Origin: an uncultured Eubacteriales bacterium
GTDB taxonomy: Bacteria > Acidobacteriota > Aminicenantia > Aminicenantales > Aminicenantaceae
Direction: 5' to 3'
Length of the DNA: 64,000 nt
NCBI GenBank assembly: GCA_964449165.1
Contig: CAYVAT010000013.1
Span: forward strand, 407 to 64,406
Below the pieces are notes generated by a model. It was not told the origin of the DNA, made no database searches, and worked only from the letters and a program-made list of their open reading frames with translations. A program made the position numbers and the translations under genes. This document shows, in pieces, positions 1 through 21,457 of the stretch; the stretch's first letter is position 1, and each line of letters starts with the position of its first letter.

Positions 1-1985
1 TGGGAATTACTCTAAAAGAGATTATTTATGATATTGGAGGCGGGATTCCCAAGGGAAAAAAATTTAAGGCAGTTCAGACCGGTGGACCATCAGGAGGCTG
101 TATCCCTGCAAGTCTGATTGATTTGCCAGTGGATTATGAAAAGTTGACTGAAGCCGGTTCCATAATGGGTTCCGGTGGAATGATTGTGATGGATGAAGAT
201 ACGTGTGTAGTGGATGTAGCGAAATATTTTATCGAGTTTACAAATGATGAATCCTGCGGAAAATGTTCATCCTGTAGAGAAGGCTCATCCCAACTCCTTG
301 AAATACTAAAAAAAATAACCAGGGGAGAAGGTGAAGAACAAGATCTTCAGACTTTGGAGGACCTCAGCCATGTGATAAAAGATACCTCAATGTGTGGATT
401 GGGTCAGACGCTGCCGAACCCGGTATTAAGCACATTGAAATATTTCATAAATGAATATATAGAACATATTAAATATAAAAGATGTTCTGCTTTAGTATGT
501 AAAGGTATAATTTCATCCGCCTGTCAGCATATATGTCCATTATCGCAGGATGTGCCCAGTTATATAGGGCTCATTGCTCAGGGAAAATTTGATGAAGCGA
601 TTAAAGTCGTAAGAAAAGAGAACCCATTACCCCTTATTTGCGGACGTGTATGTCATGCTCCTTGTGAAGAAAAGTGTGTAGCAGGGGAATGGGGTGATTC
701 CATAGCAATTAGATCGCTGAAACGTTTCCTCGCAGATTATGAGATGAAGAATGGGGTTATCATTGAAGAAAAACCGAAAAGTGAGAGAGCGGAGAAGATT
801 GCTGTGGTCGGTTCCGGTCCTGGAGGATTGACTTGTGCACATTACCTCGCCTTGGAGGGATATAAAGTTACTGTTTTTGAGAGTCAGGAAGTACCTGGAG
901 GCATGCTTGCGTTAGGCATCCCGGAATTCAGATTACCCAAGGGTGTATTGAAATATGAAATAGGCAGGATACGAAAATTAGGGGTTGAAATTAAAACAAA
1001 TACTACGATTGGGAAAGATATTCCGCTTGATAAGCTGAAAGAAGATTATAAGGCAATCTTCATTGCTGTCGGTGCCCACAAGGGTTTGAAGATGAAAGTC
1101 CCAGGTGAAGATTCTAAAGGAGTAATCGATGCGGTGGAATTCCTGAGGGATGTTAACCTGGGTCGCGAAGTAAAAATTGGGGATAAGGTTATAGTTATTG
1201 GTGGTGGAAATTCAGCCATAGATGCGGCTCGAGTAGTAAAACGAATGGGAAAGGACACGGAGATTTTATACCGAAGGACAAGAGCAGAGATGCCCGCTAT
1301 TAAGAGTGAAATCGAAGAAGCCATCATAGAGGGCATTGATATACAATTTCTCGCAGCTCCAGTTAAAGTTCTATCGAGCAATGGAAAAATGGAGGCTATA
1401 GAGGCTATCAGGATGGAACTAGGAGATGTAGATGCGAGCGGTAGAAGGCGCCCTGTTCCGATTGAGGGATCTGAATTTAAAATCAATGTGGATACTCTGA
1501 TCCTGGCCATAAGTCAGGAACCAGATGTGTCTTTATTGAATGGAAATGGATTGAATATTTCTAAGTGGAACACAATTGAAGTCGATCCTGAGACTCTTCA
1601 TACAAATATCGAGGGAGTATTTGCAGGTGGCGATGTGGTGACCGGCCCGAATACAGTAACCGAAGCCATGGCTCACGGAAAAGTTGGAGCTCAAATGATA
1701 GATAAATATATACGGGGAGATAAGCTGGAAAGAAAATACAAGGTGACTCGTCCGGCAGTCCGCGTTGAAGCCCTTGAGGTTGCAGAAGAAGAAATCAAAG
1801 AGCTCAAAAAACCTAAAATGCCATCGATGCCTATTGCTGAAAGGGTTAAGAGTTTCAAAGAAGTTGAATTGGGATTCACAGAAGCGGATGCGATTACTGA
1901 AGCGAAGCGTTGTCTCCGGTGTGATCTAGAAAGAGAAGAAGATAAAGCAGCAGAGAAAAAGAAGAATAACGAAGGGAAAAAATAA
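1..1985 (+). CDS. NuoF-like NAD(P)H-binding flavoprotein (C-terminal part) fused to a GltD-like FAD/NAD(P) oxidoreductase. It is 5'-partial: the reading frame is open from nucleotide 3.
   Basis: The frame opens upstream of the ORF-track Met: nt 3-122 translate to [35 protein letters not shown], the NuoF/HoxF FMN-NADH region. The [4Fe-4S] motif [12 protein letters not shown] and MCGLGQT are present. They are followed by a GltD-type Fe-S region ([13 protein letters not shown]) and a Rossmann motif [19 protein letters not shown]. Confidence 0.8.
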
Positions 1986-2085
1986 TGCTTCTTGAGATTG
2001 AAATTTTGGCATCTGATGACAAGAAGATACCAGGAATTGTAAACATAGAGAATTGTATTGAATGTGTTATAAGCGGAGGCTTGGC

Positions 2086-5000
2086 GTGATAGAGCTGACA
2101 ATAGATGGTAAGAAGAGTGAATTTCCTGAGGGTAAAACACTATTAGAATGTATTAAGAGTACTGGAATAAAGATACCGACTCTCTGTTATCATAAAGCTT
2201 TAACTCCATATGGAGCATGCAGATTATGTGTTGTAGAAGTGACTCAAGGCAACAGAACGGCAATTCAGGCTTCATGCACTTATCCGGCTATCAATGGTTT
2301 AATAGTGAACACCCATACTGAAAGAATAATAAAATCGAGAAAAATTATAGTTGAGCTATTATTAGCGAGATGCCCCGATTCAAAGGAGATACAGAAAATA
2401 GCAGAAGAATTGGGTGTAAAGGAAACACGGTTTAAGAAAAAAAATGAGGATTGTTTTCTTTGTGGCTTATGCGTGAGGATGTGTAATGAAAGGATGGGTA
2501 TCAGTGCAATCAATTTCGTTAATCGCGGTCCCCATAAGAAAGTAAGCCCGCCATTTGACGTGGTTTCTGATGTATGCCAGACATGTGGCGCCTGTGCTTT
2601 TATTTGTCCAACAGAAAGGATTAAACTCGAGGAAATCAGCAAGAATAAAGAAGTCCCCATATTGGATGAGTACAATGAAAGATTAATTAAAAGATCAGCT
2701 GCTTATATCCCATATCCTCAGGCTGTTCCTAATAAAGCTGTAATTGATGAGAGATATTGCGTACATATGCTTAAGGATGAATGTGGAGTCTGCAAAGAGT
2801 TTTGTGAAGCAGATGCAATTGATTATGAACAAAAAGAAAAGAAGAGTGAATTAAACGTCGGTGCAGTAGTTGTATCCCCAGGATTTGATATATTTGACGC
2901 AAAAATCAAGGAAGAATATGGATATGGATTATATCCAAATGTTGTTACGTCGCTTGAATTTGAAAGAATCTTATCTTCTACAGGGCCGTATCTCGGCAAA
3001 GTCTTAAGACCCAGTGATGGGACAAAGCCAAAAAGGATAGGATTTATTCAATGTGTCGGCTCGCGTGACATAGATCGGGATTATTGTTCCTCTGTATGCT
3101 GTATGTATGCGACAAAGGAAGCTATCATCGCTAAAGAGCATGCGGGTGAAGATTTAGAATGTGATATATTTTTTATGGACATGCGCGCATTCGGTAAAGG
3201 ATTTGATGCGTATTATCAAAGGGCAAAGGAACTTGGAGTAGATTATATCCGATGTCGTCCAGCTGCTGTGAAAGAAATTTCTCAAACAAAAAATCTTATA
3301 ATTGAGTATCTGATTGAAGATGATAAGAAAGTTTCTCGTGAATATGACATGGTTGTTCTATCTGTCGGTATAGTACCTCCAAAATCTGTAAAGGAAATTT
3401 CTGAAAAATTTGGCATCGAATTGAATGAATTTAACTTCTGTAAGACAGATCCATTTAGACCTGTTGAATCGACACGGGAGGGAATTTATACGTCAGGGCC
3501 TTTCACAGAGCCTAAAGATATACCTGAGACCATAATGCAAGCATCCGGAGCCTCATCAAAAGTTTTATCCCTTTTAAAAGACGTTAAAGGCAACTTAATA
3601 ACCCCAAAGGAATATCCGCCAGAAATAGATGTAGAAGGGCAGGAGCCAAGAATCGGAGTATTTATATGCCATTGCGGGACAAATATAGGCGGAGTGGTAA
3701 ATGTTCCAAGAGTCGTTGAATTTGCAAAAACACTTCCTAATGTTGTTTATGCAGAAGATAATTTATTTACCTGTTCAAATGATACTCAAAAAAAAATAAA
3801 AGAGAAAATAAAAGAACATAAGTTAAATCGTGTAGTCGTTGCTTCTTGTACGCCAAGGACTCACGAACCTCTATTCAGACATACAGTCCGGGAGGCGGGA
3901 CTAAACCCATATCTTTTTGAAATGGCGAATATCAGGGATCAATGCTCATGGATTCATATGCATGAACCTGAAAAAGCCACAGAGAAATCCAAAGACCTGG
4001 TGAGAATGACCGTAGCTAAATCAAGATTATTAGCACCTCTTCAAAAAATATCAGTACCAATAATAAAATCAGCGCTTGTTATCGGTGGCGGACTTTCTGG
4101 GATGACGTCTGCGCTTGAACTGGCAAGTCAAGGGTTTGATGTATATTTAGTGGAAAAAGAAAAAGAGCTGGGTGGAAATCTGAGACGTCTTCACTACTTA
4201 GTAACCGGAGAAAATCCGCAAGATGAGTTAAAAAAGCTTATTGAAAATGTAAAAAAGAATAAGAAAATCCATTTATATACAGAAGCCAGAATAGAAAAAT
4301 TTGAAGGTTCAATCGGAAATTTTAAAACAACTATTTCTTCAAAAGGAAAGTCAATAGAGCTTGGCCATGGTGTAGTGGTTGTTGCAACCGGTGCACAAGA
4401 ATATAAACCGAAAGAGTATTTATATGGTCAGCATGAAAGGGTTTTAACCCAACTCGAACTTGAAGAGCGCCTAAGCACAAACGGCGAGTGGTCAGCTCCA
4501 GATAAAAATCAAATGCCCAGGACCATTGTAATGATTCAATGCGTTGGCTCACGGGATGATGAAAGGCCTTATTGCTCAAGGGTTTGTTGTACAGAAGCTG
4601 TGAAGAACGCCTTAAAAATAAAAGAACTTTCACCTGAAGCATATATATATATATTGTACCGAGATATAAGAACTTATGGATTTAACGAAAGCTTCTATAC
4701 AGAAGCAAGGCGAAAGAACGTTGTATTCGTAAGGTATGATGAAGACCGGAAACCAGAAGTTTCAAAAAACGGAAACGGATTGCGGGTGGAAGTCTTTGAC
4801 CAGACTTTAAGGATGCCGATTGAGATATCTGCGGATTTAGTCGTGTTGTCAGCAGGAATAGTTCCAAATGATGACAGCGAAACAATTTCTCAATTTTTAA
4901 AAGTTCCTTTAAACACCGATGGATTTTTCCTTGAGGCACACATGAAGCTGAGACCGGTTGACTTTTCCACTGACGGTGTGTTTCTTGCGGGGATAGCCCA

Positions 5001-5352
5001 CAGCCCGAAGACGGTTTCAGAAAGCATTGCCCAGGCAGAGGCTGCCGCCTGCCGTGCAGCAGCAATTTTAAGCAAGGACGAGTATGAAACCGAGGCCACG
5101 ATTTCCTCGGTGAATGAAGAACTCTGTACCGGGTGCGGTACATGTGTCGAGGTATGCGAATTTGACACTCTTGAACTTGTCGAAACACCTGAGGGCGAGA
5201 TGGTATGCAGAGTGAATCAAGCGCTCTGCAAAGGCTGCGGCTGCTGCGCAGCGGCGTGCCCGAGCGGGGCGATCGAACAGAATGGCTTCAGGAGAGACCA
5301 GATCCTTTCAGCGGTTGATGCAGCAACAGCCTGGGGAGAAGAAAGTGGCTAA
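2086..5352 (+). CDS. Multidomain fusion: NuoG-like N-terminal 2Fe-2S/4Fe-4S domain, then a partial HdrA-like FAD segment, then a complete HdrA-like module (N-domain, FAD, C-terminal 2x[4Fe-4S]).
   Basis: The N-terminus TIDGKKSEFPEGKTLLECIKSTGIKIPTLCYH...GACRLCVV is NuoG/HydA-like, with Cys motifs CFLCGLCVRMC and CQTCGACAFICP. HdrA signatures QCVGSRD...YCSSVCC occur twice, plus GVFICHCGTNIGG, the dinucleotide motif VIGGGLSGM, and C-terminal CTGCGTCVEVCE / CKGCGCCAAACP. The likely start is GTG 2086 with a GGAGG 6 nt upstream; the ORF-track ATG 2062 is the alternative. Confidence 0.75.
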   Translation: MIELTIDGKKSEFPEGKTLLECIKSTGIKIPTLCYHKALTPYGACRLCVVEVTQGNRTAIQASCTYPAINGLIVNTHTERIIKSRKIIVELLLARCPDSKEIQKIAEELGVKETRFKKKNEDCFLCGLCVRMCNERMGISAINFVNRGPHKKVSPPFDVVSDVCQTCGACAFICPTERIKLEEISKNKEVPILDEYNERLIKRSAAYIPYPQAVPNKAVIDERYCVHMLKDECGVCKEFCEADAIDYEQKEKKSELNVGAVVVSPGFDIFDAKIKEEYGYGLYPNVVTSLEFERILSSTGPYLGKVLRPSDGTKPKRIGFIQCVGSRDIDRDYCSSVCCMYATKEAIIAKEHAGEDLECDIFFMDMRAFGKGFDAYYQRAKELGVDYIRCRPAAVKEISQTKNLIIEYLIEDDKKVSREYDMVVLSVGIVPPKSVKEISEKFGIELNEFNFCKTDPFRPVESTREGIYTSGPFTEPKDIPETIMQASGASSKVLSLLKDVKGNLITPKEYPPEIDVEGQEPRIGVFICHCGTNIGGVVNVPRVVEFAKTLPNVVYAEDNLFTCSNDTQKKIKEKIKEHKLNRVVVASCTPRTHEPLFRHTVREAGLNPYLFEMANIRDQCSWIHMHEPEKATEKSKDLVRMTVAKSRLLAPLQKISVPIIKSALVIGGGLSGMTSALELASQGFDVYLVEKEKELGGNLRRLHYLVTGENPQDELKKLIENVKKNKKIHLYTEARIEKFEGSIGNFKTTISSKGKSIELGHGVVVVATGAQEYKPKEYLYGQHERVLTQLELEERLSTNGEWSAPDKNQMPRTIVMIQCVGSRDDERPYCSRVCCTEAVKNALKIKELSPEAYIYILYRDIRTYGFNESFYTEARRKNVVFVRYDEDRKPEVSKNGNGLRVEVFDQTLRMPIEISADLVVLSAGIVPNDDSETISQFLKVPLNTDGFFLEAHMKLRPVDFSTDGVFLAGIAHSPKTVSESIAQAEAAACRAAAILSKDEYETEATISSVNEELCTGCGTCVEVCEFDTLELVETPEGEMVCRVNQALCKGCGCCAAACPSGAIEQNGFRRDQILSAVDAATAWGEESG

Positions 5353-5770
5353 GGAATTCGAACCCAGAATAGTGGCATTTCTTTGCAACTGGTGCTCGTA
5401 TGCTGGTGCAGATCTGGCTGGCGTCAGCAGGCTGCAGATGCCTCCCACATTCAGGGTTATCCGTGTGATGTGTTCGAGCCGCGTCGACCCGATGTTCGTG
5501 GTCAAAGCGTTTCTCGAAGGCGCTGACGGCGTGATCATGGCCGGATGCCTCCCGGGAGATTGTCACTACTTAAAGGGAAATTACTATGCGCGTCGAAGAT
5601 TTGCGGTTTTGAAAAAGACCTTTGAGAGTCTCGGATTGGAGCCTGAGCGTCTCCGGCTTTCGTGGGTTTCGGCCTCTGATGGACCGCGTTATGCGGAGGT
5701 CGTAAAAGAGTTCACAGAGGAAATACGAAAATTAGGACCTAGCCCGGCTCGTAGGGAAGTGTTTATCTAA
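5347..5770 (+). CDS. MvhD-like protein ([2Fe-2S] electron-transfer subunit of Mvh/Hdr complexes)
   Basis: FEPRIVAFLCNWCSYAGADLAG...RVMCSSRVDP...GCLPGDCHY is the MvhD signature. The start is uncertain: the ORF opens at 5282 and overlaps the upstream gene. GTG 5347 follows a GGGGAG, but ATG 5318 is also possible. Confidence 0.7.
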
Positions 5771-5872
5771 AGAAGACAGTATGTTAGGTCGAAAAAAGTA
5801 GTTCACAGGTTAAAGCAATAAAATTGGATATCGTGCCCATATTATTAAAAATTAAATAAGGAGAGAGAAAAG

Positions 5873-6229
5873 ATGGCAAAGATGGCAATTACATGCAATG
5901 GTTCGGCCGCACCGAATGTTTATCCGACCTTCATTCTCGGATCTTCAGCAGTGGCATCGGGTGATGAGGTAATCCTGTTCTTTACCCCGGGCGGAGCACC
6001 AGCCCTGGTGAAAGGCGAAATGGAGAAGATGCAGGACATAAAAGGGTACCCGAATTTGATTGAGCTGTACAATGGTATGGTCGAACTTGGGGCCAAAATC
6101 TACGCTTGCGAAATTTGCCTTGAGGCAAAGGATTTGAAGAAGGAAGACTTCAGGGAGGGAGTTGAGATCGTTGGGGCTACATCGTTTGTTAACGAGATTA
6201 AGGACGCGACAATTACGTTCTCGTTCTAG
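5873..6229 (+). CDS. DsrE/DsrF-like sulfur-relay family protein
   Basis: 118 aa of small alpha/beta protein with MAKMAITCNGS...ILFFTPGGAP...IYACEICLEAKDL. Size and conserved Cys context fit the DsrE/TusD family. A strong RBS, AAGGAGAGAG, lies upstream. Confidence 0.6.
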   Translation: MAKMAITCNGSAAPNVYPTFILGSSAVASGDEVILFFTPGGAPALVKGEMEKMQDIKGYPNLIELYNGMVELGAKIYACEICLEAKDLKKEDFREGVEIVGATSFVNEIKDATITFSF

Positions 6230-6264
6230 AGATCGATATAGGAAAATAAAAGGAGGAAGGAATA

Positions 6265-6486
6265 ATGGCTAATTATACGTTGGATACCCTAGGACTTAAA
6301 TGCCCACAGCCGGTTCTGAAGGTGGCTGTGAAGGCAAAGGAATTGCAGCCGGGAGACATGTTGGAGGTTATAGCCGACTGTGAGTCTTTTCCTAAAGATA
6401 TTGAGGCATGGTGCCAGAAGACAGGAAAGACGCTGCTTTTCTGTAATACAGAAGGTGGTAAACATACAGCACAGATTCAATTCTAG
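6265..6486 (+). CDS. TusA-like sulfurtransferase (SirA/YedF/YeeD family)
   Basis: 73 aa; LDTLGLKCPQPVLK carries the diagnostic CPxP motif of TusA-family sulfur carriers. RBS AAGGAGGAAGG lies upstream. Confidence 0.75.
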   Translation: MANYTLDTLGLKCPQPVLKVAVKAKELQPGDMLEVIADCESFPKDIEAWCQKTGKTLLFCNTEGGKHTAQIQF

Positions 6487-6606
6487 TTTTCAGTGATTGA
6501 TAGTTAGTAGCTAACAGGGATCGGATTCAGCCTTCCTGTCGGCTATTTCTATCAGCTTGTCGGAGTGGAGGCTGCATTGCCGGAGGAACAAGAAAAGGAA
6601 GAAAAG

Positions 6607-7026
6607 ATGAGCGAGGAATTTGAGCCGCGTATAGTTGCTTTTTTATGCAACTGGTGTTCGTATGCCGGTGCGGATGTGGCGGGTTCGAGCAAACTAGAGA
6701 TGCCGCCTACCATAACACCCGTGAAGGTAATGTGTTCGAGCCGGGTTGATCCGGTAATGGTGATCACAGCTTTTCTGCGCGGGGCCGACGGTGTGCTGAT
6801 TGCCGGATGTCATCCGGGAGATTGTCACTACGACAAAGGCAATTATTACGCGCGCAGGCGATTTGCGGTTTTAAGAGAAATTTTCAATACGCTTAGACTT
6901 GAAGGGGAGCGGTTGAGGCTTTCCTGGGTCTCCGCGTCGGAAGGACCGCGATACGCAGAGGTAGTGCGGGAGTTTTCCGAAAAGATCAAGCAGTTGGGCC
7001 CGAACCCTGTAAAACAGAAGACATAA
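6607..7026 (+). CDS. MvhD-like protein, second paralog
   Basis: MSEEFEPRIVAFLCNWCSYAGADVAG...VMCSSRVDP...GCHPGDCHY. The ORF-track start is GTG 6565; ATG 6607 with AAGGAAG upstream matches paralog N-termini better. Confidence 0.7.
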   Translation: MSEEFEPRIVAFLCNWCSYAGADVAGSSKLEMPPTITPVKVMCSSRVDPVMVITAFLRGADGVLIAGCHPGDCHYDKGNYYARRRFAVLREIFNTLRLEGERLRLSWVSASEGPRYAEVVREFSEKIKQLGPNPVKQKT

Positions 7027-7053
7027 AACACCTTCAGGTGCTGGAGAAAGACT

Positions 7054-8340
7054 ATGACTAAAAAACAGCAAGAGGCCAAGGATCAGGTTCTTGTGATCGG
7101 TGCGGGAATGGCCGGGATCGAGGCCAGCCTTACACTGGCCTCTGCCGACAAGAAGGTCTACCTCGTGGAGAAGGAACCGCTGTTCGGCGGAAAGGTTATC
7201 AAGTTCGAAGAAGTCTTTGCCAACATGGAATGCTCCACATGTATGGCAGCGCCGAAACAGCAAGAAGTGCTTCAGAATGAGAAGATCGAGTTGCTTACGC
7301 TCAGCAAGGTAAAAGAAGTTAAAGGAGAAGCGGGTAATTTTACTGTAAAGATTGAAAAAAAGGCAAGATACGTGAGCCTCGAGGACTGCATAGGCTGTAA
7401 CGAGTGTTTTGAACCCTGCCCGGTAAGTCTGCCCAATGAGTTCGAGGAGAACCTGGGTGAGAGAAAGGCTATATATATCCCCTGTCCCGGCGCGCTACCG
7501 AATGCCCCGTCGATAGATACAGATAATTGCGTGAGATTCACGAAGGGAGAAGATTGCCAGTTGTGCAAGGAAGCCTGCATGTTTGAGGCAATCGATTTCG
7601 ACCAGAAAGATGAAGAAGTGGAACTCAATGTTGGGGCCATAATTGTAGCTACAGGATTTGACCTTATGGATTCCGAGCAGATTTCTGACTGGGGTTACAA
7701 TGGCGAAGCGAACGTGTATACCGCACTTGAGATGGAAAGGTTGTATGCGTCGAACGGGCCAACTGCGGGAAAAATCATTTTAAGAAACAATAAAGAACCG
7801 GCATCCGCGGCAATGATTCACTGTGTGGGACGCGAAAAAGCGGGTTACTGTTCTGGCGTATGCTGTATGTACAGTTTCAAGTTTATTCATTACTTGAAAG
7901 ACAAACTGCCGGAAATAAAACTGTATGATGTCTACAGCGACTTTTGTATGCCAGGCAAGAGCTATCAGCCATTTTTCGAGCATTTGAAAGATAAAACAGA
8001 GTCGGTTCGGTTCCAAGATCTGAAAATCGTGCATCAGAACGGTAAAGTACGGATCAAATATAAATCCTTGGCAGGCAAGGAGGAAAAACTGGATGTAGAT
8101 ATGGTGATTCTTGCACCCGCTATCGTGCCCGCCAAGGGGGCATCGGAATTGGCCAAGAAACTGGGCATTGAACAAACTGAGAGCGGATTTTTTGGTTTTC
8201 AATCGAGTGACCGTTCACCGGAGGAGAGCGGCCGTGAGGGGATTTATCTTGCGGGGTGTGTTCTCGGGCCCGAAGACATTGGCAGAGCAATTGCCCAGGC
8301 CGAGGCAGCGGCAGGGAAAGTACTTGCATTGCTTAGTTGA
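7054..8340 (+). CDS. HdrA-like flavoprotein, central module: FAD domain with inserted 2x[4Fe-4S] ferredoxin, lacking the HdrA N- and C-terminal domains
   Basis: VLVIGAGMAGIEASL, FEEVFANMECSTCM, CIGCNECFEPCP, CQLCKEAC, IHCVGREKAGYCSGVCCMY. It is collinear with residues ~140-560 of the canonical HdrA at 15747-17669. Confidence 0.75.
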   Translation: MTKKQQEAKDQVLVIGAGMAGIEASLTLASADKKVYLVEKEPLFGGKVIKFEEVFANMECSTCMAAPKQQEVLQNEKIELLTLSKVKEVKGEAGNFTVKIEKKARYVSLEDCIGCNECFEPCPVSLPNEFEENLGERKAIYIPCPGALPNAPSIDTDNCVRFTKGEDCQLCKEACMFEAIDFDQKDEEVELNVGAIIVATGFDLMDSEQISDWGYNGEANVYTALEMERLYASNGPTAGKIILRNNKEPASAAMIHCVGREKAGYCSGVCCMYSFKFIHYLKDKLPEIKLYDVYSDFCMPGKSYQPFFEHLKDKTESVRFQDLKIVHQNGKVRIKYKSLAGKEEKLDVDMVILAPAIVPAKGASELAKKLGIEQTESGFFGFQSSDRSPEESGREGIYLAGCVLGPEDIGRAIAQAEAAAGKVLALLS

Positions 8341-8355
8341 GCGAAGAGGAGTGTA

Positions 8356-10038
8356 ATGGAGAAGAAGAGCGTAATGGATAGGAAAATCGGCGTTTATGTT
8401 TGTGAATGCGGGCCGAACATAGCAGATGCTCTGGATATAGACAGGGTTATCGAAGCTGTGTCGGGCATGGAGAATGTCGCTGTTATCGATAGGTATAAAC
8501 TCCTGTGCTCCCCGGACGGGAAGAAATACCTTGCCGAGCAGATAAAAGAACATGGGCTGACACACTTGGTGGTTGGAGCGTGTTCCCCAAAACAGCATGA
8601 AGCGACTTTTATGGGCGTATGTAAAGAAGGTGGGATGAATCCTTTCCTGATGCAGATGGCCAATCTTCGAGAGCAGATCGCATGGATAACTCCAGACAAA
8701 GAAAAAGCTACCGAACGGGCGATCAGGCACATGAAAGCGGCTGTTCGACGTGTCCGGTATCACGCGCCGTTGGAACAAAAAGAAATTGAATGTAATGCAG
8801 ATGTGCTGGTCATAGGTGGAGGTATAGCGGGAATGTCGGCAGCCCTGCTGCTGAGCAGTCCGGACCGAAAAGTGTTTCTAGTCGAAAAGAATACAGAACT
8901 CGGAGGAATGGTTTCAAGATACGAGAAGCTCTTTCCGGATATGATCAGAGGCAGTGAGATTACGGAAAGGCGCGTCAAGAGCTTGAAAGAAGACGATAAT
9001 ATCGAGGTGCTAACAGGTACAAAAGTGGAGAAAATCCTCGGCTTTTTCGGAAACTTTGTAGTTACTGTCCGCGAAGGAGAATCCGAACCTCGAGAGTTTA
9101 AAGTGGGAGCTGTTGTAGTGGCCACAGGTGCAGACCTTTTCGATCCCGGTACCCTGGAGGAATACGCGTACGGGAAGATAAAAAATGTTGTTACTGCCCC
9201 CGAGGTTGAAGAAATGAATCTGAAAGGAAACATTAAGCTCGAAAACGGAAAAGAACCGAAAAGTGTTGGGATTATTCATTGCGTTGGTCGGAAAGAGAAA
9301 GGGTACTGCTCAGAGGTGTGCTGCAGAGCGGGGATGAAGATATCGCGCTATCTGAAAGAAAAGATTCCGGCCGTTTCAATAAAGCATTTTTATCAGGATC
9401 TCTGTGTTCCGGGCTCTGGAGCGCAGGCGTTCTACGAGGAGACCCGGGATGCGGGGGCGGAGTTTGTCTGCACAGATACAGTTAAACTGAAGGAGTCCGA
9501 TAAAAATATCAAAATAGATCACGACGGTAAAGTTGATACAGTAGACATGGCGGTCCTTCTGCCCGCAATAGAACCGGCAGAAGACACTTCTGATATTTCC
9601 GAAATGCTCGGTGTTGAAAAGGGAAAGGGAGGATTTCTTACGGAAGAACACGAGAAGATAAGCCCGGTCACTACAACCGTCGAAGGAGTATGCCTGGCCG
9701 GGTCTGTTTCAGGACCAAAAACCGTACGTGACGCCGTGTCCCAGTCAGAAGCTGCAGCGGGGAAGATACTTTCCTCATTGGTGCCGGGTCGAAAACTGGA
9801 AACAGAAGCCAAGACTTCGAAAATATTCGAGAATTTGTGTACGGGCTGTAGAACTTGTCTGACGGTATGCTGTTACAGCGCAATCGAGTATGATGAATCG
9901 AGAGGAGTTTGTGTGGTTAATGAGGTGCTCTGCAAGGGATGCGGGAATTGCGCAGCAGCTTGCCCCTCTGGAGCGGCAATGCATCAGCAATTTACACCAA
10001 AACAAATCTACAGGGAAGTGATAGAGATATTGCGATGA
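8356..10038 (+). CDS. HdrA-like flavoprotein with N-terminal Cys domain and C-terminal 2x[4Fe-4S], but no inserted ferredoxin domain
   Basis: IGVYVCECGPNI...LLCSPDG...VGACSPKQ; VLVIGGGIAGMSAAL; IHCVGRKEKGYCSEVCC; C-terminal CTGCRTCLTVCC and CKGCGNCAAACPSG. RBS GAGGAG lies upstream. Confidence 0.75.
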   Translation: MEKKSVMDRKIGVYVCECGPNIADALDIDRVIEAVSGMENVAVIDRYKLLCSPDGKKYLAEQIKEHGLTHLVVGACSPKQHEATFMGVCKEGGMNPFLMQMANLREQIAWITPDKEKATERAIRHMKAAVRRVRYHAPLEQKEIECNADVLVIGGGIAGMSAALLLSSPDRKVFLVEKNTELGGMVSRYEKLFPDMIRGSEITERRVKSLKEDDNIEVLTGTKVEKILGFFGNFVVTVREGESEPREFKVGAVVVATGADLFDPGTLEEYAYGKIKNVVTAPEVEEMNLKGNIKLENGKEPKSVGIIHCVGRKEKGYCSEVCCRAGMKISRYLKEKIPAVSIKHFYQDLCVPGSGAQAFYEETRDAGAEFVCTDTVKLKESDKNIKIDHDGKVDTVDMAVLLPAIEPAEDTSDISEMLGVEKGKGGFLTEEHEKISPVTTTVEGVCLAGSVSGPKTVRDAVSQSEAAAGKILSSLVPGRKLETEAKTSKIFENLCTGCRTCLTVCCYSAIEYDESRGVCVVNEVLCKGCGNCAAACPSGAAMHQQFTPKQIYREVIEILR

Positions 10039-11117
10039 AAGAAGGGCATGTAATCAAAGCAGCTGAAGGGACGAGTAAAGCTATAGCCGGGCTTTTAAAG
10101 AGCTCGCTGGAGAAGAAAATCTTTGAGGCTGTGCTTGTGCCAATACGCACAAACGAAGGATATAACTACGTTTTGACGGATAACGCCGACCTTCTGGAAA
10201 GGGCCGAGATAATGCCCCCGGTGATGTCTGTTCAAGGGGGCAAGGTGTTGCAGGCTCTGACTCGGCACGGGAAAAGCAGGAAAATCGCCGCCGTAATGCG
10301 GATGTGCGAAATACGGGCTGCTGTAGAGCTTTCCAAGTTGGAGCAGACGGATTTGGAGAACGTTTTCTTTATCAGTGTGGATTGTAATGGCGTAACACCT
10401 CTCTCCGATTACCTGGAAGATCCGTCCAGCGCCGGCACGAAGCTCCGGCCACTTTGCGAAATCTGTACGTCATTCAGTGTTGTTGGAGATAAACAGGCCC
10501 AGGATGTTGATATACACGCTGCAACCATGGGTGTAGATGAAGGAGAAGTGTTGTTTATTCCCATGAGCGATGACGGTGAAAGTGTGCTGGAGAAACTGGC
10601 CATTGATAAGAAAAAAGACGCCGGGAAATGGGTAAAGGAAACAGAGAAGTTGCAGAAGCAGCGTATAGCCGCCAGGGAAAAAGCTCTGAAAGAAACAAAG
10701 GAAATGGTAAAAGGACTGAACGGTTTGCTGGAGGTGTTCAGCCGGTGCATAGAATGTCACAACTGCCGCAGTGTATGCCCGATATGCTATTGTCGGCTCT
10801 GCTTTTCTGATAAGGATACTTTCCGGGAAACAGGCGCGGAATATCTTGATCGTGTGCAGGCCCAAGGGGTGATGAAGTGTACAGATGACCTTCTGCAGTT
10901 CCATTTGGGCCGGATGTCGCACATGAGCTTATCGTGCGTGTCCTGCGGAATGTGTGAAGATGTGTGCCCGGTGGACATACCGGTTGGACAAGTATTCAGC
11001 GCCGTAGCCGAGAAAACTCAGGCGATATTTGACTATTTTGCGGGTAAAAGTTCTGATGAGGAACAGCCGCTCAGGACATTCGAGCTGGGTGAATTGGTTG
11101 AAGTAGAGGACAAATGA
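10035..11117 (+). CDS. FrhB/FdhB/FpoF-family protein (coenzyme F420 hydrogenase/dehydrogenase beta-subunit-like flavo-Fe-S protein), paralog 1
   Basis: RMCEIRAAVEL corresponds to the FrhB motif GTPCQIQAVR. C-terminal CIECHNCRSVCPICYC and CVSCGMCEDVCP. The start ATG at 10035 overlaps the previous stop (ATGA); the ORF-track Met at 9939 lies inside the upstream gene. Confidence 0.65.
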   Translation: MKEGHVIKAAEGTSKAIAGLLKSSLEKKIFEAVLVPIRTNEGYNYVLTDNADLLERAEIMPPVMSVQGGKVLQALTRHGKSRKIAAVMRMCEIRAAVELSKLEQTDLENVFFISVDCNGVTPLSDYLEDPSSAGTKLRPLCEICTSFSVVGDKQAQDVDIHAATMGVDEGEVLFIPMSDDGESVLEKLAIDKKKDAGKWVKETEKLQKQRIAAREKALKETKEMVKGLNGLLEVFSRCIECHNCRSVCPICYCRLCFSDKDTFRETGAEYLDRVQAQGVMKCTDDLLQFHLGRMSHMSLSCVSCGMCEDVCPVDIPVGQVFSAVAEKTQAIFDYFAGKSSDEEQPLRTFELGELVEVEDK

Positions 11118-11155
11118 ATGGTCTGTGACCGGCCGCGCATGCTTGGAGACTTGAA

Positions 11156-12265
11156 ATGACTAAGATGTTGAAAATAGATAAAGCGATTTCAGACGGGACC
11201 AGAGATTTTCTGCGCTATCTTCTGGACAGCAAGAACGTGCGTAGTGTGGCAGTGCTGAGGAGAGATAGGACGTCTGGCTGGGTCAGCTACAGCCTGATCT
11301 CTGATCCGGAAAAGATAGAGGAAGCGGTCCCTTTTTCTCCGGTCATGCCATACAACGCGGGTGAGTATCTCTCTCGCCTCACATCCAAGGGACCGTTCGA
11401 TAAGCCTGTTGCGGTGGTATTGCGTCCATGCGAACAGCGAGCGTTTGTGGAGCTTGTAAAACGACAGCAGGGCAGTTTGGACAATATCATAACAATCAGT
11501 TCGGTTTGTCCGGGAGTTTATCCTTTGAAAACATTTGTTCGTGAGAACGAGGACAAGCTGTTTAAGGATTACTGGTCGGTGGTAGCTGATGGAAAACAAC
11601 CTGAGGGGATCCGGGACACGTGTTCGTTCTGTGAGCATTTTGTTCCGGCTGAAGCCGACATTGTCATACCCATAGCAGGCGAGAAGGATACGGGCAAAGA
11701 ATGCAAATTGTTCGCGAATACCGAAAAGGGAGCTGAACTACTGAAGGGGATAGATGGGAAAATACAGGAATCTGAACTGGAGACAAAAGGAACCGAAGCT
11801 ATCCGGCAGTTGCGGAAGGAAAACGAAGAAAAGATGCTGGCCGATCTGGGGAAAAAGTTATCGGGATTAGATGGGCTGGTAGAAATGTTCAGTACGTGCA
11901 TTGGCTGTCATGGATGTCGGTCGGTTTGCCCGATTTGTTACTGCCGCTTATGTGAATTTGATTCTTCTCGAAGTGAATACGAGGCACGAAAATATGAAAT
12001 CGAACTGCGCAAGAAGGGGGGCGTAAGAATACCCCCGGGCTCCATAGCCTTTCAGATAGGTCGGATGATCCATATAGGCCTTTCCTGTGTGAGCTGCGGG
12101 ATGTGTAGCGACGTGTGTCCCGCCGATATCCCGGTTGCAAATATTTTCAGGAAAGCGGGAAAGGCGGTCCAGGATGTGTTCGAATACATTCCTGGAAAGG
12201 ACCTTGAGGATAGTATCCCTGTCACGACATTTGAAGAAGAGGAATTGAGAAGTGTTGAGGATTAA
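11156..12265 (+). CDS. FrhB/FdhB/FpoF-family protein, paralog 2
   Basis: RPCEQRAFVELVK; CIGCHGCRSVCPICYCRLC; CVSCGMCSDVCPADIP. It aligns with paralog 1 throughout. Confidence 0.65.
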   Translation: MTKMLKIDKAISDGTRDFLRYLLDSKNVRSVAVLRRDRTSGWVSYSLISDPEKIEEAVPFSPVMPYNAGEYLSRLTSKGPFDKPVAVVLRPCEQRAFVELVKRQQGSLDNIITISSVCPGVYPLKTFVRENEDKLFKDYWSVVADGKQPEGIRDTCSFCEHFVPAEADIVIPIAGEKDTGKECKLFANTEKGAELLKGIDGKIQESELETKGTEAIRQLRKENEEKMLADLGKKLSGLDGLVEMFSTCIGCHGCRSVCPICYCRLCEFDSSRSEYEARKYEIELRKKGGVRIPPGSIAFQIGRMIHIGLSCVSCGMCSDVCPADIPVANIFRKAGKAVQDVFEYIPGKDLEDSIPVTTFEEEELRSVED

Positions 12266-12729
12266 GAGGGTGGTGAATCAGATTTTATTATCTTTGTTAT
12301 TTCATCTACAATTCCCGGAATTTTACTTTTTACCCCAGGAGTACATTCCTCGCCAAACGTAGTATTATCTTCTATTTCTATTGCATAAATTTCAATAATT
12401 TGAGGTATTTTATATCCCAGCTTCCTTCCGAGTTCAATTGCAGTTCTAATATTCACTCCATGTGAGTATGATGGAGTTGAAAAAGTGCCTATATCTTCCA
12501 GGTTTAGTTTGTAAAGGGTGCCAGGTGTTTCTTTTTCTGTTTTTATGGAGTCGATGATGATAAGTCTCTCGTATTCACCAATATAGTCAAGCAGTGAAAT
12601 TCCCGCCAGACTTGTTTTTATCACTTCAATATCAGGAAGGGAAAGTTTCTCTATCTCATTTGCCACACAGATGCCTACCGAATCATCTGTCAGAATTGGG
12701 TTTCCAACTCCCAATATAAGAGTTTCCAT
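12262..12729 (-). CDS. [NiFe] hydrogenase maturation endopeptidase (HycI/HybD/FrhD family)
   Basis: ILGVGNPILTDDSVGICVANEI...IIIDS is typical of hydrogenase C-terminal processing proteases. It sits directly downstream of the large subunit. Confidence 0.8.
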   Translation of the reverse strand: METLILGVGNPILTDDSVGICVANEIEKLSLPDIEVIKTSLAGISLLDYIGEYERLIIIDSIKTEKETPGTLYKLNLEDIGTFSTPSYSHGVNIRTAIELGRKLGYKIPQIIEIYAIEIEDNTTFGEECTPGVKSKIPGIVDEITKIIKSDSPPS

Positions 12730-12786: not shown

Positions 12787-14250
12787 TTACGACCTTCTGA
12801 TAGTGTCTATTATATTCGCTTTATGATCTCTAATGTTGACTTCGAGAGGCATATGCCCGGGCAGTGAATGAGTAGCACAGGCAAGGCAAGGGTCATATGC
12901 ACGGAATGCCATTTCTACCATGTTAAGTAATCCCTCAGATACCTTTCCCTCCTTTATGAGCCCTTTTGCCGCTTTCTCTATTGACATACATATCGAAGCA
13001 GCATTGTTAACTGTAGCAACAATTAAATTGACGTCTGTAAGAACACCTTTATCGTCTGTCTTGTAATGATGATAGAGAGTACCTCTTGGTGCTTCTACTA
13101 CGCCAATCCCTTCATCAGGAACAGCGGTTGGGATACTTCTAACATCGGGGTCGAGAATTTCCTCGTCCTGGGCTAACTCCAAAAGCCTTTCAGCTGCATA
13201 GAGAAGCTCCACTAGCCTTGCCCAATGATAGGCAAGAGTGTTGTGTGCTGGCTTACCACCCAAGATATTATACATTTTTTCATATTCTACTTGAGCCAGT
13301 GGCGTTGCCATACCATCGGACGCATTGAGTCTTGCAAGAGGAGCTACTCGATAAACTCCGCTGTCCTTTCCATCAACGAATCCCTTCCAGCCGACACCTT
13401 TAAGATATGGAAATTTTATGTAGCTCCACGGCTCAACATGCTCCTCAATATGATTCAGATACTCCCGAGACTTAAACTTGGCAAACTCCTTACCTTCAGG
13501 GTCAACTACTCTAATATCTCCGTCATAAAAATTGACTTTATTGTTCTCATCAACAAGTCCCATATAATATGTTTTGTGTTTGTAAATATCTCCCACAATG
13601 ACATCTACATACTCTTTGTTTTTGAGAACAATGTCTTCAAAAGCTTTCAAAGCGAATTTGGCAAATTCTATCGCATCTTTCCCTATTTGGATATATTCTT
13701 CTCTATCTTCTTTGGTAACCCCCTTGGATACACCCCCAGGAAGATTACATACGGGGTGAATAACCCTGCCTCCCTGCTTTGTAATGATGTTGCGCAGCCG
13801 CTTTCTGATATCTATAACCTTCTTGCCCGCGTCAAGACCAACTTTCTGAATGACTCCCAAAATATTCCTCTCTCCTGCGGGTGCCTGTGGTCCAACAACA
13901 AAATCAGGTCCCCCAAGGAAGAAGAAGTGGAGAGTATGGTCTTCAGCCATGAAAGCAGAATTAATAAGCTCTCTTATCTTCTTGGCCGGTGACGGAGGGG
14001 TTACATGGAACAAATCATCAAGCGCCTTGCCAGATGCCATATGATGGGTAGTGGGACATACGCCACATATCTTGGGAGTGATTCTCGGCATTTCCTCTGC
14101 CATGCGTCCTTCAGAAAATTTCTCAAATCCCCTCAGCTCAGGAACTTGAAAAAAAGCCTTCTCCACATTTCCCTCGTTATTAAGAAATATTTCTATCTTC
14201 CCATGACCTTCAAGCCTTGTTATTGGGTCTATCGTTATTCTTTTTGCCAT
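12787..14250 (-). CDS. mvhA: [NiFe] hydrogenase large subunit, Mvh/group-3c-like
   Basis: N-terminal RLEGHGKIEI and PKICGVCPTTHH; C-terminal DPCLACATHSLPGH (the Ni-Fe ligating CxxC pair); RBS AGGGAGA. Confidence 0.85.
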   Translation of the reverse strand: MAKRITIDPITRLEGHGKIEIFLNNEGNVEKAFFQVPELRGFEKFSEGRMAEEMPRITPKICGVCPTTHHMASGKALDDLFHVTPPSPAKKIRELINSAFMAEDHTLHFFFLGGPDFVVGPQAPAGERNILGVIQKVGLDAGKKVIDIRKRLRNIITKQGGRVIHPVCNLPGGVSKGVTKEDREEYIQIGKDAIEFAKFALKAFEDIVLKNKEYVDVIVGDIYKHKTYYMGLVDENNKVNFYDGDIRVVDPEGKEFAKFKSREYLNHIEEHVEPWSYIKFPYLKGVGWKGFVDGKDSGVYRVAPLARLNASDGMATPLAQVEYEKMYNILGGKPAHNTLAYHWARLVELLYAAERLLELAQDEEILDPDVRSIPTAVPDEGIGVVEAPRGTLYHHYKTDDKGVLTDVNLIVATVNNAASICMSIEKAAKGLIKEGKVSEGLLNMVEMAFRAYDPCLACATHSLPGHMPLEVNIRDHKANIIDTIRRS

Positions 14251-14329: not shown

Positions 14330-15310
14330 CTATGCCATTCTCTTCCTTTTTAACAGCGAAGAAGGCAAACTATACATATAGAAAAGACCTGCCGGATCTA
14401 CTATCTGGTCGATTAACTTCTTCGTGTCTTCCTCTGTCATCTTCTCTTCTTCTTCCACGCCTATTATGGATGCAATTGCTGATAATCCTTTTGCCCCCTG
14501 GTCTACTACTTCCTTTGTCGGTCCAAAACATCCGCGACACGGCATATTTGCATTTATGCATCTCTCACCACAGCCGCTCCTGGTTACAGGGCCTAAGCAG
14601 ATAAGCCCTTCTTCTAAAAAACACTTCTCAGGGTCTGGTATTATCTCGTAGGGTCTCTTTATTTCCTTTATTGAGAGTTTATCCGGTTTTGTCTCTCCAC
14701 GTGGGCAAGTTTCACACAAGGATTTATCAGGTGCGAGAACTGCTCCCTTTTCGGGAAGCTTACCTTCCAATATAGCTGTTACCGCATTCATAATTAAATC
14801 TGGTGGCGGTGCACATCCAGGAAGATAATAATCAACATCGATTGTCTGGTCCAGTGTCTTGACTGTATCATAGAACTCAGGAAGCGTAAGCTCACCCTCA
14901 GGAATATTTGTTTTTTGTTGTGGCACTATCCCATTGGGGTTTGCTATAGAGGGTACTGTCTTGTAAACCCTCGTGAAAATTGTTTCCCTATTCCAAAAAT
15001 TTGCAAGCCCTGGTATTCCACCTAAATGAGAACAGGACCCAAACGCGACTACAAGCCCAGATTTCTTTCTCAATAGTTTCACCATCTCTTCCTGTTCTTC
15101 TGTTCTAATAGCACCGTTTATGAAACTCACTGCTATTTCTCCATCGCCCATCGCCTCCACATCCTTTTTCTTAAAGTCCAGTGCGACTGGCCAGAACGCT
15201 ATATCCACTGCCTCCACTACTTTTAATATATCCTCATTAAGGTCGACAATAGCTTCCTCACATCCACCACATGAAGCGCACCAATAAAATGCTACTTTTG
15301 GTTTAGCCAT
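14330..15310 (-). CDS. mvhG: [NiFe] hydrogenase small subunit, Mvh/group-3c-like
   Basis: VAFYWCASCGGCEE at the N-terminus (proximal cluster), with further Cys motifs. RBS AGGAGG. Positioned between mvhD and mvhA. Confidence 0.8.
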   Translation of the reverse strand: MAKPKVAFYWCASCGGCEEAIVDLNEDILKVVEAVDIAFWPVALDFKKKDVEAMGDGEIAVSFINGAIRTEEQEEMVKLLRKKSGLVVAFGSCSHLGGIPGLANFWNRETIFTRVYKTVPSIANPNGIVPQQKTNIPEGELTLPEFYDTVKTLDQTIDVDYYLPGCAPPPDLIMNAVTAILEGKLPEKGAVLAPDKSLCETCPRGETKPDKLSIKEIKRPYEIIPDPEKCFLEEGLICLGPVTRSGCGERCINANMPCRGCFGPTKEVVDQGAKGLSAIASIIGVEEEEKMTEEDTKKLIDQIVDPAGLFYMYSLPSSLLKRKRMA

Positions 15311-15348: not shown

Positions 15349-15750
15349 TTAGGATAATTCTAGGGGACCTAAATTTTTTACAGTTTCTGCCATTTCATTT
15401 GCTACTTTTGCAAATCTCTCTCCTTCGCCTGCTGCAACCCAGTCCAATCTAACTCTTTCTTCTTCAATCCCCAGCTGCTTCAGGGTATTCTTCAAAAGAT
15501 GTGCTCTCCGAAGTGCCTTATAGTTTCCTGTTTTGTAATGGCAGTCCCCGGGATGGCATCCTAAAATTAACACTCCGCTTGCGCCCTCTTTTAATGCTTG
15601 TATCACAAGCTCTGGATCTACACGACCGCTGCACATAACCCGAACGATTCTTACATTCGCAGGATAATTCAATCGTGCGCCCCCAGCCTTATCTGCTCCT
15701 TCGTATGAACACCAATTACATAGAAAACTAACGATTGTTGGCTCATTCAT
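15349..15750 (-). CDS. mvhD: MvhD ([2Fe-2S] subunit linking hydrogenase and HdrA)
   Basis: TIVSFLCNWCSYEGADKAG...RVMCSGRVDP...GCHPGDCHY; RBS AAGGGGG; 4-nt overlap with the hdrA stop. Confidence 0.8.
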   Translation of the reverse strand: MNEPTIVSFLCNWCSYEGADKAGGARLNYPANVRIVRVMCSGRVDPELVIQALKEGASGVLILGCHPGDCHYKTGNYKALRRAHLLKNTLKQLGIEEERVRLDWVAAGEGERFAKVANEMAETVKNLGPLELS

Positions 15751-21231: not shown

Positions 21232-21341
21232 CACCTTTTCATTTTTTGGCCATTCTTCGGCAATCTTGTCCTTTATCATAAATCATTTATTTTTAGAGCG
21301 TTAGCGCTTTTCCTAAAAAAATTTTTGAACTGCGTCTATTT

Positions 21342-21357: not shown

Positions 21358-21457
21358 CTATAAATGAAATGAGATGACTAATTCCAATAGGATAGTCACT
21401 GTCGCCAAAGCTGTCCTGGTGGAAATTGACTAAAAAAACAAAAATTGGAGGTTAACA

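Follow-up and report, generated by a model that had tools for sequence, protein, structure and literature searches.

The window analysed here is a stretch of 64,000 nucleotides (nt) of contig CAYVAT010000013.1, from an uncultured bacterium of the Aminicenantaceae, and the system in question is an array of ten co-oriented plus-strand genes, g1 to g10, which occupies nt 3-12265 with gaps of at most 102 nt or small overlaps, according to the listing of open reading frames (ORFs). The array encodes several HdrA-type flavoproteins together with two proteins of sulfur-carrier families, DsrE and TusA (Table 1). Bifurcating complexes built on HdrA are at the core of energy conservation in anaerobes, and for few of the bacterial HdrA systems is a thiol/disulfide partner known. 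Domains were assigned with Pfam (gathering scores), NCBIfam (model cut-offs), PDB profile matches and, for g10, Foldseek. The original prediction, made from the sequence alone, had described a ten-gene co-oriented array with small gaps and had listed its components, and this description is borne out by the ORFs and by the Pfam, NCBIfam and PDB matches. The array is, however, the 3′ part of a long operon and a mosaic of modules, A, B and C, that are also found apart. The ten genes are not one indivisible unit; they make up at least two cassettes that occur separately elsewhere: g1-g3 are part of module A, and g4-g10 are cassette B.

Table 1. Genes of the array and of the convergent hydrogenase operon, with the matches on which their assignment rests (aa, amino acids; FAD, flavin adenine dinucleotide)
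Gene	Position (nt)	Strand	Assignment	Matches and remarks
g1	3..1985	+	C-terminal 660 aa of a NuoF/GltD fusion	SLBB, NuoF 4Fe-4S, GltD-type FAD/NAD(P)H
g2	2062..5352	+	NuoG-like N-terminus (2Fe-2S + 4Fe-4S), partial HdrA, complete HdrA	
g3	5282..5770	+	MvhD-type 2Fe-2S adaptor number 1	Pfam FlpD 187 bits, domain from residue 30
g4	5873..6229	+	DsrE-family sulfur carrier	Pfam DrsE_2 56.1 bits (cut-off 25), DsrE 39.9 bits (cut-off 22.7)
g5	6265..6486	+	TusA sulfur carrier	Pfam TusA 69.7 bits (cut-off 28.6); CPQP at residues 13-16
g6	6565..7026	+	MvhD-type adaptor number 2	Pfam FlpD 175 bits
g7	7054..8340	+	HdrA paralogue, 428 aa	Flavin domain with CxxC near FAD and inserted di-cluster ferredoxin domain; no N- or C-terminal domains
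g8	8356..10038	+	HdrA paralogue, 560 aa	N-terminal, flavin and C-terminal ferredoxin domains; no inserted ferredoxin domain, no CxxC
g9	~10035..11117	+	FdhB/ElpB-like Fe-S (flavo)protein 1, 360 aa	Start taken from gene calls in relatives
g10	11156..12265	+	FdhB/ElpB-like Fe-S (flavo)protein 2, 369 aa	Pfam FrhB_FdhB_C 34.7 bits (cut-off 23.3)
hycI	12262..12729	-	HycI-type hydrogenase maturation protease	Pfam HycI 44.7 bits; last gene of the operon
mvhA	12787..14250	-	MvhA/VhuA-type [NiFe] hydrogenase large subunit	Pfam NiFeSe_Hases; NCBIfam VhuA 402 bits (best match; cut-off 800)
mvhG	14330..15310	-	MvhG-type small subunit	Pfam Oxidored_q6 79.5 bits
mvhD	15349..15750	-	MvhD adaptor number 3	Pfam FlpD 185 bits
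hdrA	15747..17669	-	Full-length HdrA, 640 aa	NCBIfam HdrA2 675 bits over residues 4-638
arsR	17764..18042	-	ArsR/SmtB-type regulator	Heads the minus-strand operon; Pfam HTH_5, NCBIfam

Cassette B has the order (arsR)-dsrE-tusA-mvhD-hdrA(428)-hdrA(560)-two fdhB-like genes-(mvhD). Its distribution was followed in 80 loci (numbered with the prefix L) from a metagenome scan seeded by the DsrE alignment only, and the counts, whose denominators are the loci of sufficient length for a judgement, carry no correction for shared ancestry. TusA is found next to DsrE in 66 of 75 loci; an MvhD no farther away than 1.2 kilobases (kb) was counted in 51 of 62 and an HdrA no farther away than 2.5 kb in 43 of 49. 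The full series TusA-MvhD-HdrA428-HdrA560-FdhB-like1-FdhB-like2 is complete in 22 of 26. An ArsR-type regulator stands just 5′ of DsrE in 30 of 66 loci. Among the 11 loci that extend at least 8 kb on both sides, HdrB occurs in two, NuoF or NuoG/HdrA in five and MvhA in three. Cassette B is often alone, with no HdrB within 8-10 kb, and in a metagenome-assembled genome (MAG) of the Aminicenantaceae (L086) it sits amid unrelated genes, with an extra MvhD at its end. Cassette B is therefore a widely conserved and self-contained unit, and the linkage of DsrE/TusA to MvhD/HdrA is non-random.

DsrE is found with three different HdrA/MvhD architectures. DsrE and TusA precede an HdrA-MvhD-CCG fusion followed by MvhGA-HdrCBA in L087, L140 and L146; DsrE stands between NuoG/HdrA and MvhD-HdrA-MvhDGA in L116, L123 and L125; and in L170 genes for HdrD-like, HdrC, HdrB and HdrA proteins lie directly 5′ of it. 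A single string of HdrC-HdrB, module A, cassette B and MvhDGA is present in L128. Other loci carry additional genes of sulfur metabolism type within or beside the cassette. In L169, genes for a rhodanese, a second TusA and a YeeE-type Sulf_transp protein interrupt the cassette between HdrA560 and the FdhB-like genes (L169:6289-8684); this locus also has a CsoR-like regulator 5′ of the cassette and a double-MvhD/ferredoxin fusion and a DUF5981 gene after it; rhodanese domains are encoded 5′ of the cassette in L163, and a CsoR-like gene replaces ArsR in L160 and L162. It is these inserts and neighbours that best indicate what the cassette works on, namely sulfur compounds that are imported and handed on via a carrier relay.

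The assignment of g4 and g5 to the DsrE and TusA families, already made in the original prediction, passed the thresholds of the respective hidden Markov models, and the CPxP motif of TusA is present. Cys79 of g4 is invariant in 25 aligned DsrE-family sequences and aligns with the cysteine of PDB 2qs7 and 3mc3. Against the NCBIfam DsrE2 model g4 scores 48 bits, with a cut-off of 210, too little to place it in a named subgroup (DsrE2-5). The protein encoded in the window has a second cysteine (Cys79-Glu-Ile-Cys82, nt 6107-6118), which makes a CxxC motif, whereas 24 of 24 homologues have CELAL or CELSL instead. A role of DsrE as a CxxC redox protein, comparable to the UxxC DsrE-like selenoproteins, could thus be ruled out, because the second cysteine is unique to the window copy; as only Cys79 is invariant, the family is one of single-cysteine carriers. 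For g5, the match to E. coli TusA (3lvj) has an expectation value (E) of 3e-10. With DsrE as the query, 422 protein clusters were retrieved at E ≤ 1e-5, of which the 120 best are 64-92% identical and derive from MAGs of Chitinispirillaceae, WOR-3, TA06, Aminicenantes, Acidobacteriota and Fidelibacterota. The homologues bear automatic names alone, for example "predicted peroxiredoxin" or "formate dehydrogenase subunit beta".

The two HdrA paralogues of cassette B have lost different parts of the canonical protein. Residues 3-427 of g7 correspond to positions 133-560 of the HdrA2 model, and residues 8-423 to positions 150-568 of PDB 8rvu_a, so that g7 spans HdrA positions ~140-565; its CxxC occupies the position of the Cys/Sec of HdrA, and the HA4-type cluster motif is kept. 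By contrast, g8 matches HdrA in two stretches, residues 9-240 and 241-557, between which HdrA positions ~240-311 are skipped, as was confirmed in the alignment with g7. Both proteins are far closer to methanogen HdrA (E 8e-99 for g7 and 6e-107 for g8) than to the non-bifurcating sHdrA 6tjr (4e-22 and 3e-33, respectively). As HdrA proteins with FAD and multiple 4Fe-4S clusters, g2, g7, g8 and the HdrA of the hydrogenase operon all qualify, at scores that for each of them lie below the NCBIfam equivalog cut-offs.

The last two genes of the cassette encode full-length paralogues of one another (35% identity, E 3e-64). In the case of g9 there is no Pfam FrhB match, and the relationship is seen in the PDB profile matches (9t1s_M, 7e-32; 8rvu_E, 3e-28). 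For g10 alone, the match to FdhB in the PDB has an E of 3e-34, and the g10 family profile is colinear with FdhB/ElpB (9t1s_M, 5e-52; 7bkb_E, 6.5e-41), with invariant sets of cysteine ligands; Pfam FrhB_FdhB_N was seen in just 2 of 31 members of the family. The AlphaFold2 model of g10 (predicted local distance difference test score 83) gave Foldseek matches to 7bkb_E (1.7e-18) and 8rvu_E (2.3e-17) at template modelling scores of 0.70-0.71, and the next matches were FrhB, the N-domain of Fsr and HCAR. One of the FdhB-like proteins has a C-terminal di-cluster domain of the HdrC type (Fer4_8/Fer4_17). An 85% identical relative of g10 is encoded in the Nitrospirota MAG "Nitrospira bacterium SM23_35", to which the host of the window is taken to be related.

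Module A is a NAD(P)H-linked HdrA unit, composed of a split-HdrA/NuoE fusion, NuoE, g1, g2 and g3 together with an upstream partner. The Pfam matches of g1 are to NADH_4Fe-4S (110 bits), Fer4_20 (96 bits) and Pyr_redox_2 (126 bits), and those of g2 to Fer2_4 (NuoG-type), Pyr_redox_2 and Fer4. The match of g2 to NCBIfam HdrA2 (887 bits) falls into three stretches, one of which pairs residues 196-507 with model positions 253-562. This partial HdrA has the inserted ferredoxin domain and, of the flavin domain, the second half. One HdrA thus appears to be split over two genes: an upstream gene in relatives (L081:1806-2693; L092:~1556-2440) encodes the FAD-binding N-terminal piece of HdrA joined to a NuoE-like 2Fe-2S domain, and residues ~196-507 of g2 supply no more than the rest. 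The start of g3 probably lies some codons further downstream than listed, because in relatives (L084, L171) a protein of 141 aa is called. The best g1 relative among the matches listed in a genome scan was 57% identical, and no close one was among them. Homologues 58-67% identical to g2 adjoin MvhDGA in other phyla. Loci with NuoF...NuoG/HdrA (54-67% identical to g2)-MvhD-MvhG-MvhA and no DsrE/TusA are present in Melioribacter and in MAGs labelled as acidobacterial, deltaproteobacterial or 'Bacteroides sp.'; module A therefore exists alone, tied to Mvh hydrogenase.

The left edge of the window bears directly on what the array may lack. Although the ORF tool places the start of g1 at a TTG at nt 123, there is no stop in frame 3 from nt 3 on, and this part codes for the SLBB region of NuoF; the orthologues of g1 have 1022-1041 aa, as compared with 660 aa in the window, and carry in addition a NuoE-like N-terminus and the Complex1_51K flavin mononucleotide domain. 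Hence g1, and with it the array, is cut by the window edge. The original prediction had stressed that HdrB and HdrC are missing. Indeed, no CCG-domain motif was found in the 64 kb by regular expression in all six frames, no stand-alone HdrC-like protein is encoded within the window, and CxxCxxCxxxC motifs are confined to the proteins of the cluster and one [FeFe]-hydrogenase-like ORF. Since the array is cut at nt 1, however, this absence holds within the window only, and relatives carry HdrC plus HdrB or a QmoC-like gene upstream.

The exact g2 protein had no match in the contig collection, in which the nearest contigs show ~90% nt identity. The closest ones, L094 (90.6%) and L092 (90.3%), are collinear with the window over 16.3 kb including the convergent Mvh operon, and protein identities to the closest contigs are 88-97%; L094 and L095 stem from the White Oak River SMTZ data. 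Position 1 of the window corresponds to nt 4129 of L094. On the same strand 5′ of that point, the closest contigs encode NuoE (127 aa) and a fusion of 295-344 aa that joins the FAD-binding N-terminal piece of HdrA to a NuoE-like 2Fe-2S domain. (In L094:1515-2497 this fusion falls into two overlapping ORFs, owing to a frameshift or to faulty assembly; L092 has it in one piece.) Also 5′, L092, L094 and L095 have a gene for a protein of 407 aa, in which an HdrC-type di-cluster domain is followed by a NarI-like membrane domain; its match to NCBIfam qmoC spans positions 6-358 of 360 and scores 191 bits, where the family cut-off is 300. The protein has 4-5 predicted transmembrane segments, and its gene overlaps or abuts the next one. 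The end of another [NiFe] hydrogenase large subunit lies farther 5′. Where these contigs have the QmoC-like gene, L084 (88.7% nt identity), L089 (~87%) and L081-L083 (~77%) have HdrC (196 aa) and HdrB (283 aa; CCG 88 bits in two stretches, TIGR03288 155 bits). Thus, an HdrC-type partner, QmoC-like or HdrCB, heads the string in every relative with upstream sequence, and the very finding that would speak against a system devoid of HdrBC, namely HdrB/HdrC genes just upstream, is largely made in the relatives (L081, L084 and L089, with the QmoC-like gene in L092, L094 and L095). By per-segment identity the first 2 kb of the window are nearest to the QmoC-type contigs, with a modest margin. The partner of module A lies beyond nt 1; in the closest relatives it is most probably the membrane protein with QmoC-like features and the HdrC-type di-cluster domain, and in slightly more distant ones HdrC plus HdrB.

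On the opposite side, the array meets a convergent operon, module C, whose order HdrA-MvhD-MvhG-MvhA-HycI on the minus strand confirms by Pfam what had been predicted. All parts of an Mvh-type (putatively group 3c) hydrogenase are present, namely both subunits, large and small, as well as MvhD, with an HdrA next to them. At nt 12262-12265 the stop codons of g10 and of the HycI gene overlap by 4 nt, so that the two operons converge without a shared intergenic space, and no terminator-like hairpin was detected at this junction. Scans for promoters and terminators returned counts equal to the shuffled expectation, with no terminator-like signal beyond chance, and transcription units therefore cannot be judged from them. 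The guanine-plus-cytosine content of cassette B (47-49% at nt 6001-12000) is higher than that of its flanks (38-43%; module A 38-45%, Mvh operon 41-43%). The difference would fit a module that was acquired on its own and then joined to the genes around it, for which it is weak evidence.

The ArsR/SmtB regulators encoded beside the cassette (L100, L108, L121, L132 and others) and by the Mvh operon have two conserved cysteines in common. They were considered as persulfide sensors on account of these cysteines and not retained as such, the match to the model of the sulfite-sensing BigR being weak (50.6 bits, with a cut-off of 155). Beyond the regulator gene, nt 18351-25462 encode a PAS histidine kinase, a sigma-54 activator, a response regulator, a PHP protein and an [FeFe]-hydrogenase-like protein with a C-terminal 'FeS' domain, a block that looks like a sensory hydrogenase. 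It is kept beside the cluster in L171 and L085, and a contig that carries the SM23_35 protein shares this downstream block of the window. The remainder of the window consists of housekeeping genes, amid which lies, on the minus strand at nt 29566-32937, a gene for a GH38 alpha-mannosidase-like protein of 1123 aa. Dissimilatory sulfur or sulfate genes, including aprAB, were not found among the window ORFs scanned, which were all but about twenty smaller ones.

By best sequence and fold matches, the closest known systems are the methanogen complexes Elp-Hdr and Fdh-Hdr (ElpABC-HdrABC and FdhAB-MvhD-HdrABC; PDB 8RVU, 9T1S, 7BKB; PMC12350162). Cassette B shares with them the MvhD/ElpC adaptor (g6, as well as g3 in module A) and HdrA of the bifurcation type (g7, g8), and g9 and g10 resemble their FdhB/ElpB subunit, which has FAD and four 4Fe-4S clusters. 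It differs in that the cluster has no ElpA/FdhA or molybdopterin protein according to Pfam, that HdrBC is absent from the window and often from the vicinity of cassette B, that two complementary HdrA paralogues take the place of a homodimer, and that there are two FdhB-like subunits; moreover, the hosts are bacteria, presumably with no coenzyme M or coenzyme B, and DsrE and TusA are always attached. The combination of Hdr-family proteins with a sulfur relay of the TusA/DsrE family is reminiscent of the sHdr system (TusA/DsrE3, LbpA). Unlike sHdr loci, however, the window has no hdrC1B1A-hyp-hdrC2B2 set, its HdrA proteins are of the large bifurcation type and not of the 6tjr type, and the hosts of the cassette are anaerobic sediment lineages; LbpA lipoate-binding proteins were found neither among the 16 cluster genes nor in the gene tables of the related loci. 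We know of no report of MvhD or FdhB-like subunits as parts of sHdr.

With QmoABC the operon presumably has in common two HdrA-like flavoproteins and an MvhD-type module, and a QmoC-like gene heads it in the closest relatives. There is, in contrast, no aprAB among the window ORFs scanned, the QmoC-like protein does not reach the family cut-off and gives way to HdrCB in sister lineages, and NuoEF/GltD, NuoG, FdhB-like, DsrE and TusA genes are additional components of the window or of the operon in relatives. Module A presumably resembles FlxABCD-HdrABC and BamDEFGHI, in that a flavoprotein which oxidises NAD(P)H is combined with HdrA and MvhD and, in relatives, with a partner of the HdrBC type; its NuoEFG-like proteins presumably have counterparts in BamGHI. 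It lacks FlxA/B/C-type proteins and BamB, has NuoF fused to GltD and a NuoG piece fused to HdrA, and stands in an array with DsrE and TusA. No protein with FAD_binding_6, NAD_binding_1 or DHODB_Fe-S_bind was found by Pfam in the cluster (such genes lie farther downstream in L170), and the array is not Flx-Hdr, because FlxABC-type proteins are missing. The YTD cluster of sulfur disproportionators was rejected as a match as well; it is described with a YedE-type permease, TusA, a DsrE-like protein and two hypothetical genes, and no Hdr, MvhD or FdhB. The claim that the arrangement is not a characterised system stands in so far as full-text literature searches found no published description of cassette B, although a mention in the HdrA review of Appel et al. 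2021 is possible; the claim had overlooked the methanogen Fdh-Hdr and Elp-Hdr complexes, the closest characterised systems for the FdhB-like/MvhD/HdrA part. Cassette B, which is widespread among uncultured anaerobes, is apparently undescribed so far and can be seen as a form of the Fdh/Elp-Hdr type to whose front a sulfur-carrier pair is fixed.

In Elp-Hdr, the FAD of ElpB accepts hydride from F420H2, and electrons pass from the ElpB clusters to the N-terminal clusters of one HdrA, then to the 2Fe-2S cluster of ElpC/MvhD and on to the bifurcating FAD′ of the partner HdrA′ (PMC12350162). The high-potential electron exits by HA4′ to HdrC/HdrB, whereas the low-potential electron is carried by the shuttle cluster HA3, which is C-terminal in the first HdrA, to HA5′ in the partner's inserted ferredoxin domain, and from there to ferredoxin (PMC12350162). 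Cassette B could be a heterodimeric version of this methanogen machine. The domains of g8 at its N- and C-terminal ends, on the one hand, and the FAD/CxxC, HA4-type motif and inserted ferredoxin domain of g7, on the other, match complementary roles. Of the two paths in the HdrA homodimer, a heterodimer of g7 with g8 would therefore retain exactly one, a single bifurcation path deduced from domain architecture. The terminal domains of g8 would provide the donor arm and the shuttle cluster; one FdhB-like flavoprotein and MvhD, seated on g8, would complete the donor arm and draw electron pairs from a hydride carrier. The inserted ferredoxin domain of g7 may then pass electrons to ferredoxin as the low-potential acceptor, and the high-potential electron would go to the second FdhB-like protein, with its HdrC-type di-cluster domain, or to HdrBC where present. 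The final acceptor would be sulfane sulfur (persulfide or thiosulfonate) on Cys13 of TusA or Cys79 of DsrE, to be released as H2S, and module C (HdrA-MvhDGA-HycI) may supply a link to H2.

Taken together, we give even chances to the reading that the operon of the window is modular and that cassette B is an Elp/Fdh-Hdr-like bifurcating enzyme which acts on sulfane sulfur bound to TusA/DsrE. That the cassette represents a new class of HdrBC-independent bifurcating enzyme, with a heterodimeric HdrA, an FdhB/ElpB-like high-potential branch and TusA/DsrE sulfane sulfur as the acceptor, is a more daring proposal and a doubtful one. The formation of a complex, the direction of electron flow, the sulfur substrate (persulfide, as the original prediction also had it) and the site of its reduction are all inferred from sequence, and the reverse direction, confurcation, would be equally possible on that basis. 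Several observations weigh against the bifurcating enzyme with a sulfur acceptor. Bifurcation from NAD(P)H to ferredoxin and persulfide would be thermodynamically tight, according to our own estimate from standard potentials. In stand-alone cassette B there is no recognised disulfide- or persulfide-reducing site, be it a CCG domain or a flavin-linked CxxC like that of TrxR, and flavin sites of the FrhB/FdhB type are known for F420 hydride transfer, not for sulfur chemistry (PMC12350162 and established knowledge). The loci behind the synteny counts are not phylogenetically independent, the homologues found are all from uncultured organisms, and, with ~90% as the best identity of any contig, the genome of the window itself may have either variant, QmoC-like or HdrCB.

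Alternatively, DsrE and TusA may be accessory proteins that supply sulfur for the maturation of Fe-S clusters or cofactors, or sense the redox state or sulfide, the real substrates being other than sulfur, as in an F420-like or NAD(P)H:ferredoxin oxidoreductase modelled on Elp-Hdr. It is established that TusA takes part in the thiolation of cofactors and tRNA, the proteins of the cassette carry many Fe-S clusters, and both the F420 precedent for the FdhB/ElpB flavin site and the want of a recognisable sulfur-reducing catalytic site in the stand-alone cassette would be accounted for. This explanation nevertheless seems unlikely to us, since equally cluster-rich HdrA complexes carry no dsrE or tusA, whereas here a DsrE that is 64-92% identical across several phyla is fixed at the head of the cassette and tied to three HdrA/MvhD architectures; in L169, moreover, the rhodanese, YeeE-type transporter and second TusA in mid-cassette point to an imported sulfur substrate.

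Two further explanations concern the partner of the HdrA proteins. According to the original prediction, all ten products would form one soluble complex with no HdrB/HdrC-type partner, in which electrons from NAD(P)H, and from H2 via Mvh, reach ferredoxin and a TusA/DsrE persulfide. Such a complex would fit the close packing and common orientation of the genes, between which no terminator-like signal exceeds chance, as well as a window with neither CCG domain nor free HdrC, and in L128 module A, cassette B and the Mvh genes do share one strand in one string. That string itself begins with HdrC-HdrB, however, as the relatives with upstream sequence are all headed by HdrCB or a QmoC-like gene; given also that the operon of the window is cut at nt 1 and that modules A and B occur independently in many lineages, we regard a single complex of this kind as quite improbable. 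The QmoC-like gene, full-length at the operon head in L092, L094 and L095, might on the other hand hint at a membrane-anchored, Qmo-like system, whose QmoC-like subunit would exchange electrons with the menaquinone pool while the HdrA paralogues and MvhD act as QmoA/QmoB, so that quinol and a second donor would drive the reduction of a sulfur compound in the cytoplasm. A short HdrA, a longer HdrA and MvhD presumably correspond to the domain content of QmoA/QmoB. The chances of this arrangement are slim: the qmoC score of 191 bits falls short of the cut-off, soluble HdrCB takes the same position in sister lineages and cassette B mostly has no membrane subunit, the window ORFs scanned include no aprAB or other dissimilatory sulfate genes, and g7 possesses the inserted di-cluster ferredoxin domain of bifurcating HdrA.

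The interest of cassette B is twofold. In many uncultured lineages from sediments the sulfur-carrier pair holds a fixed place at its head, which provides a testable candidate substrate, sulfane sulfur bound to TusA or DsrE, and the complementary domain losses of g7 and g8 would amount to a natural single-path HdrA dimer that could help to dissect the mechanism of bifurcation. Should the link to sulfur prove true, current surveys of marker genes would underrate both how widespread cryptic sulfur reduction in the cytoplasm is in marine and estuarine sediments and how well it is coupled to energy conservation. It is tempting to speculate that, if independence from HdrBC holds as well, many uncultured fermentative sediment phyla would be capable of an energy-conserving cytoplasmic reduction of sulfur, polysulfide or thiosulfate; those concerned would be the Aminicenantes, WOR-3, TA06, Fidelibacterota, Chitinispirillaceae and relatives of Nitrospirota.

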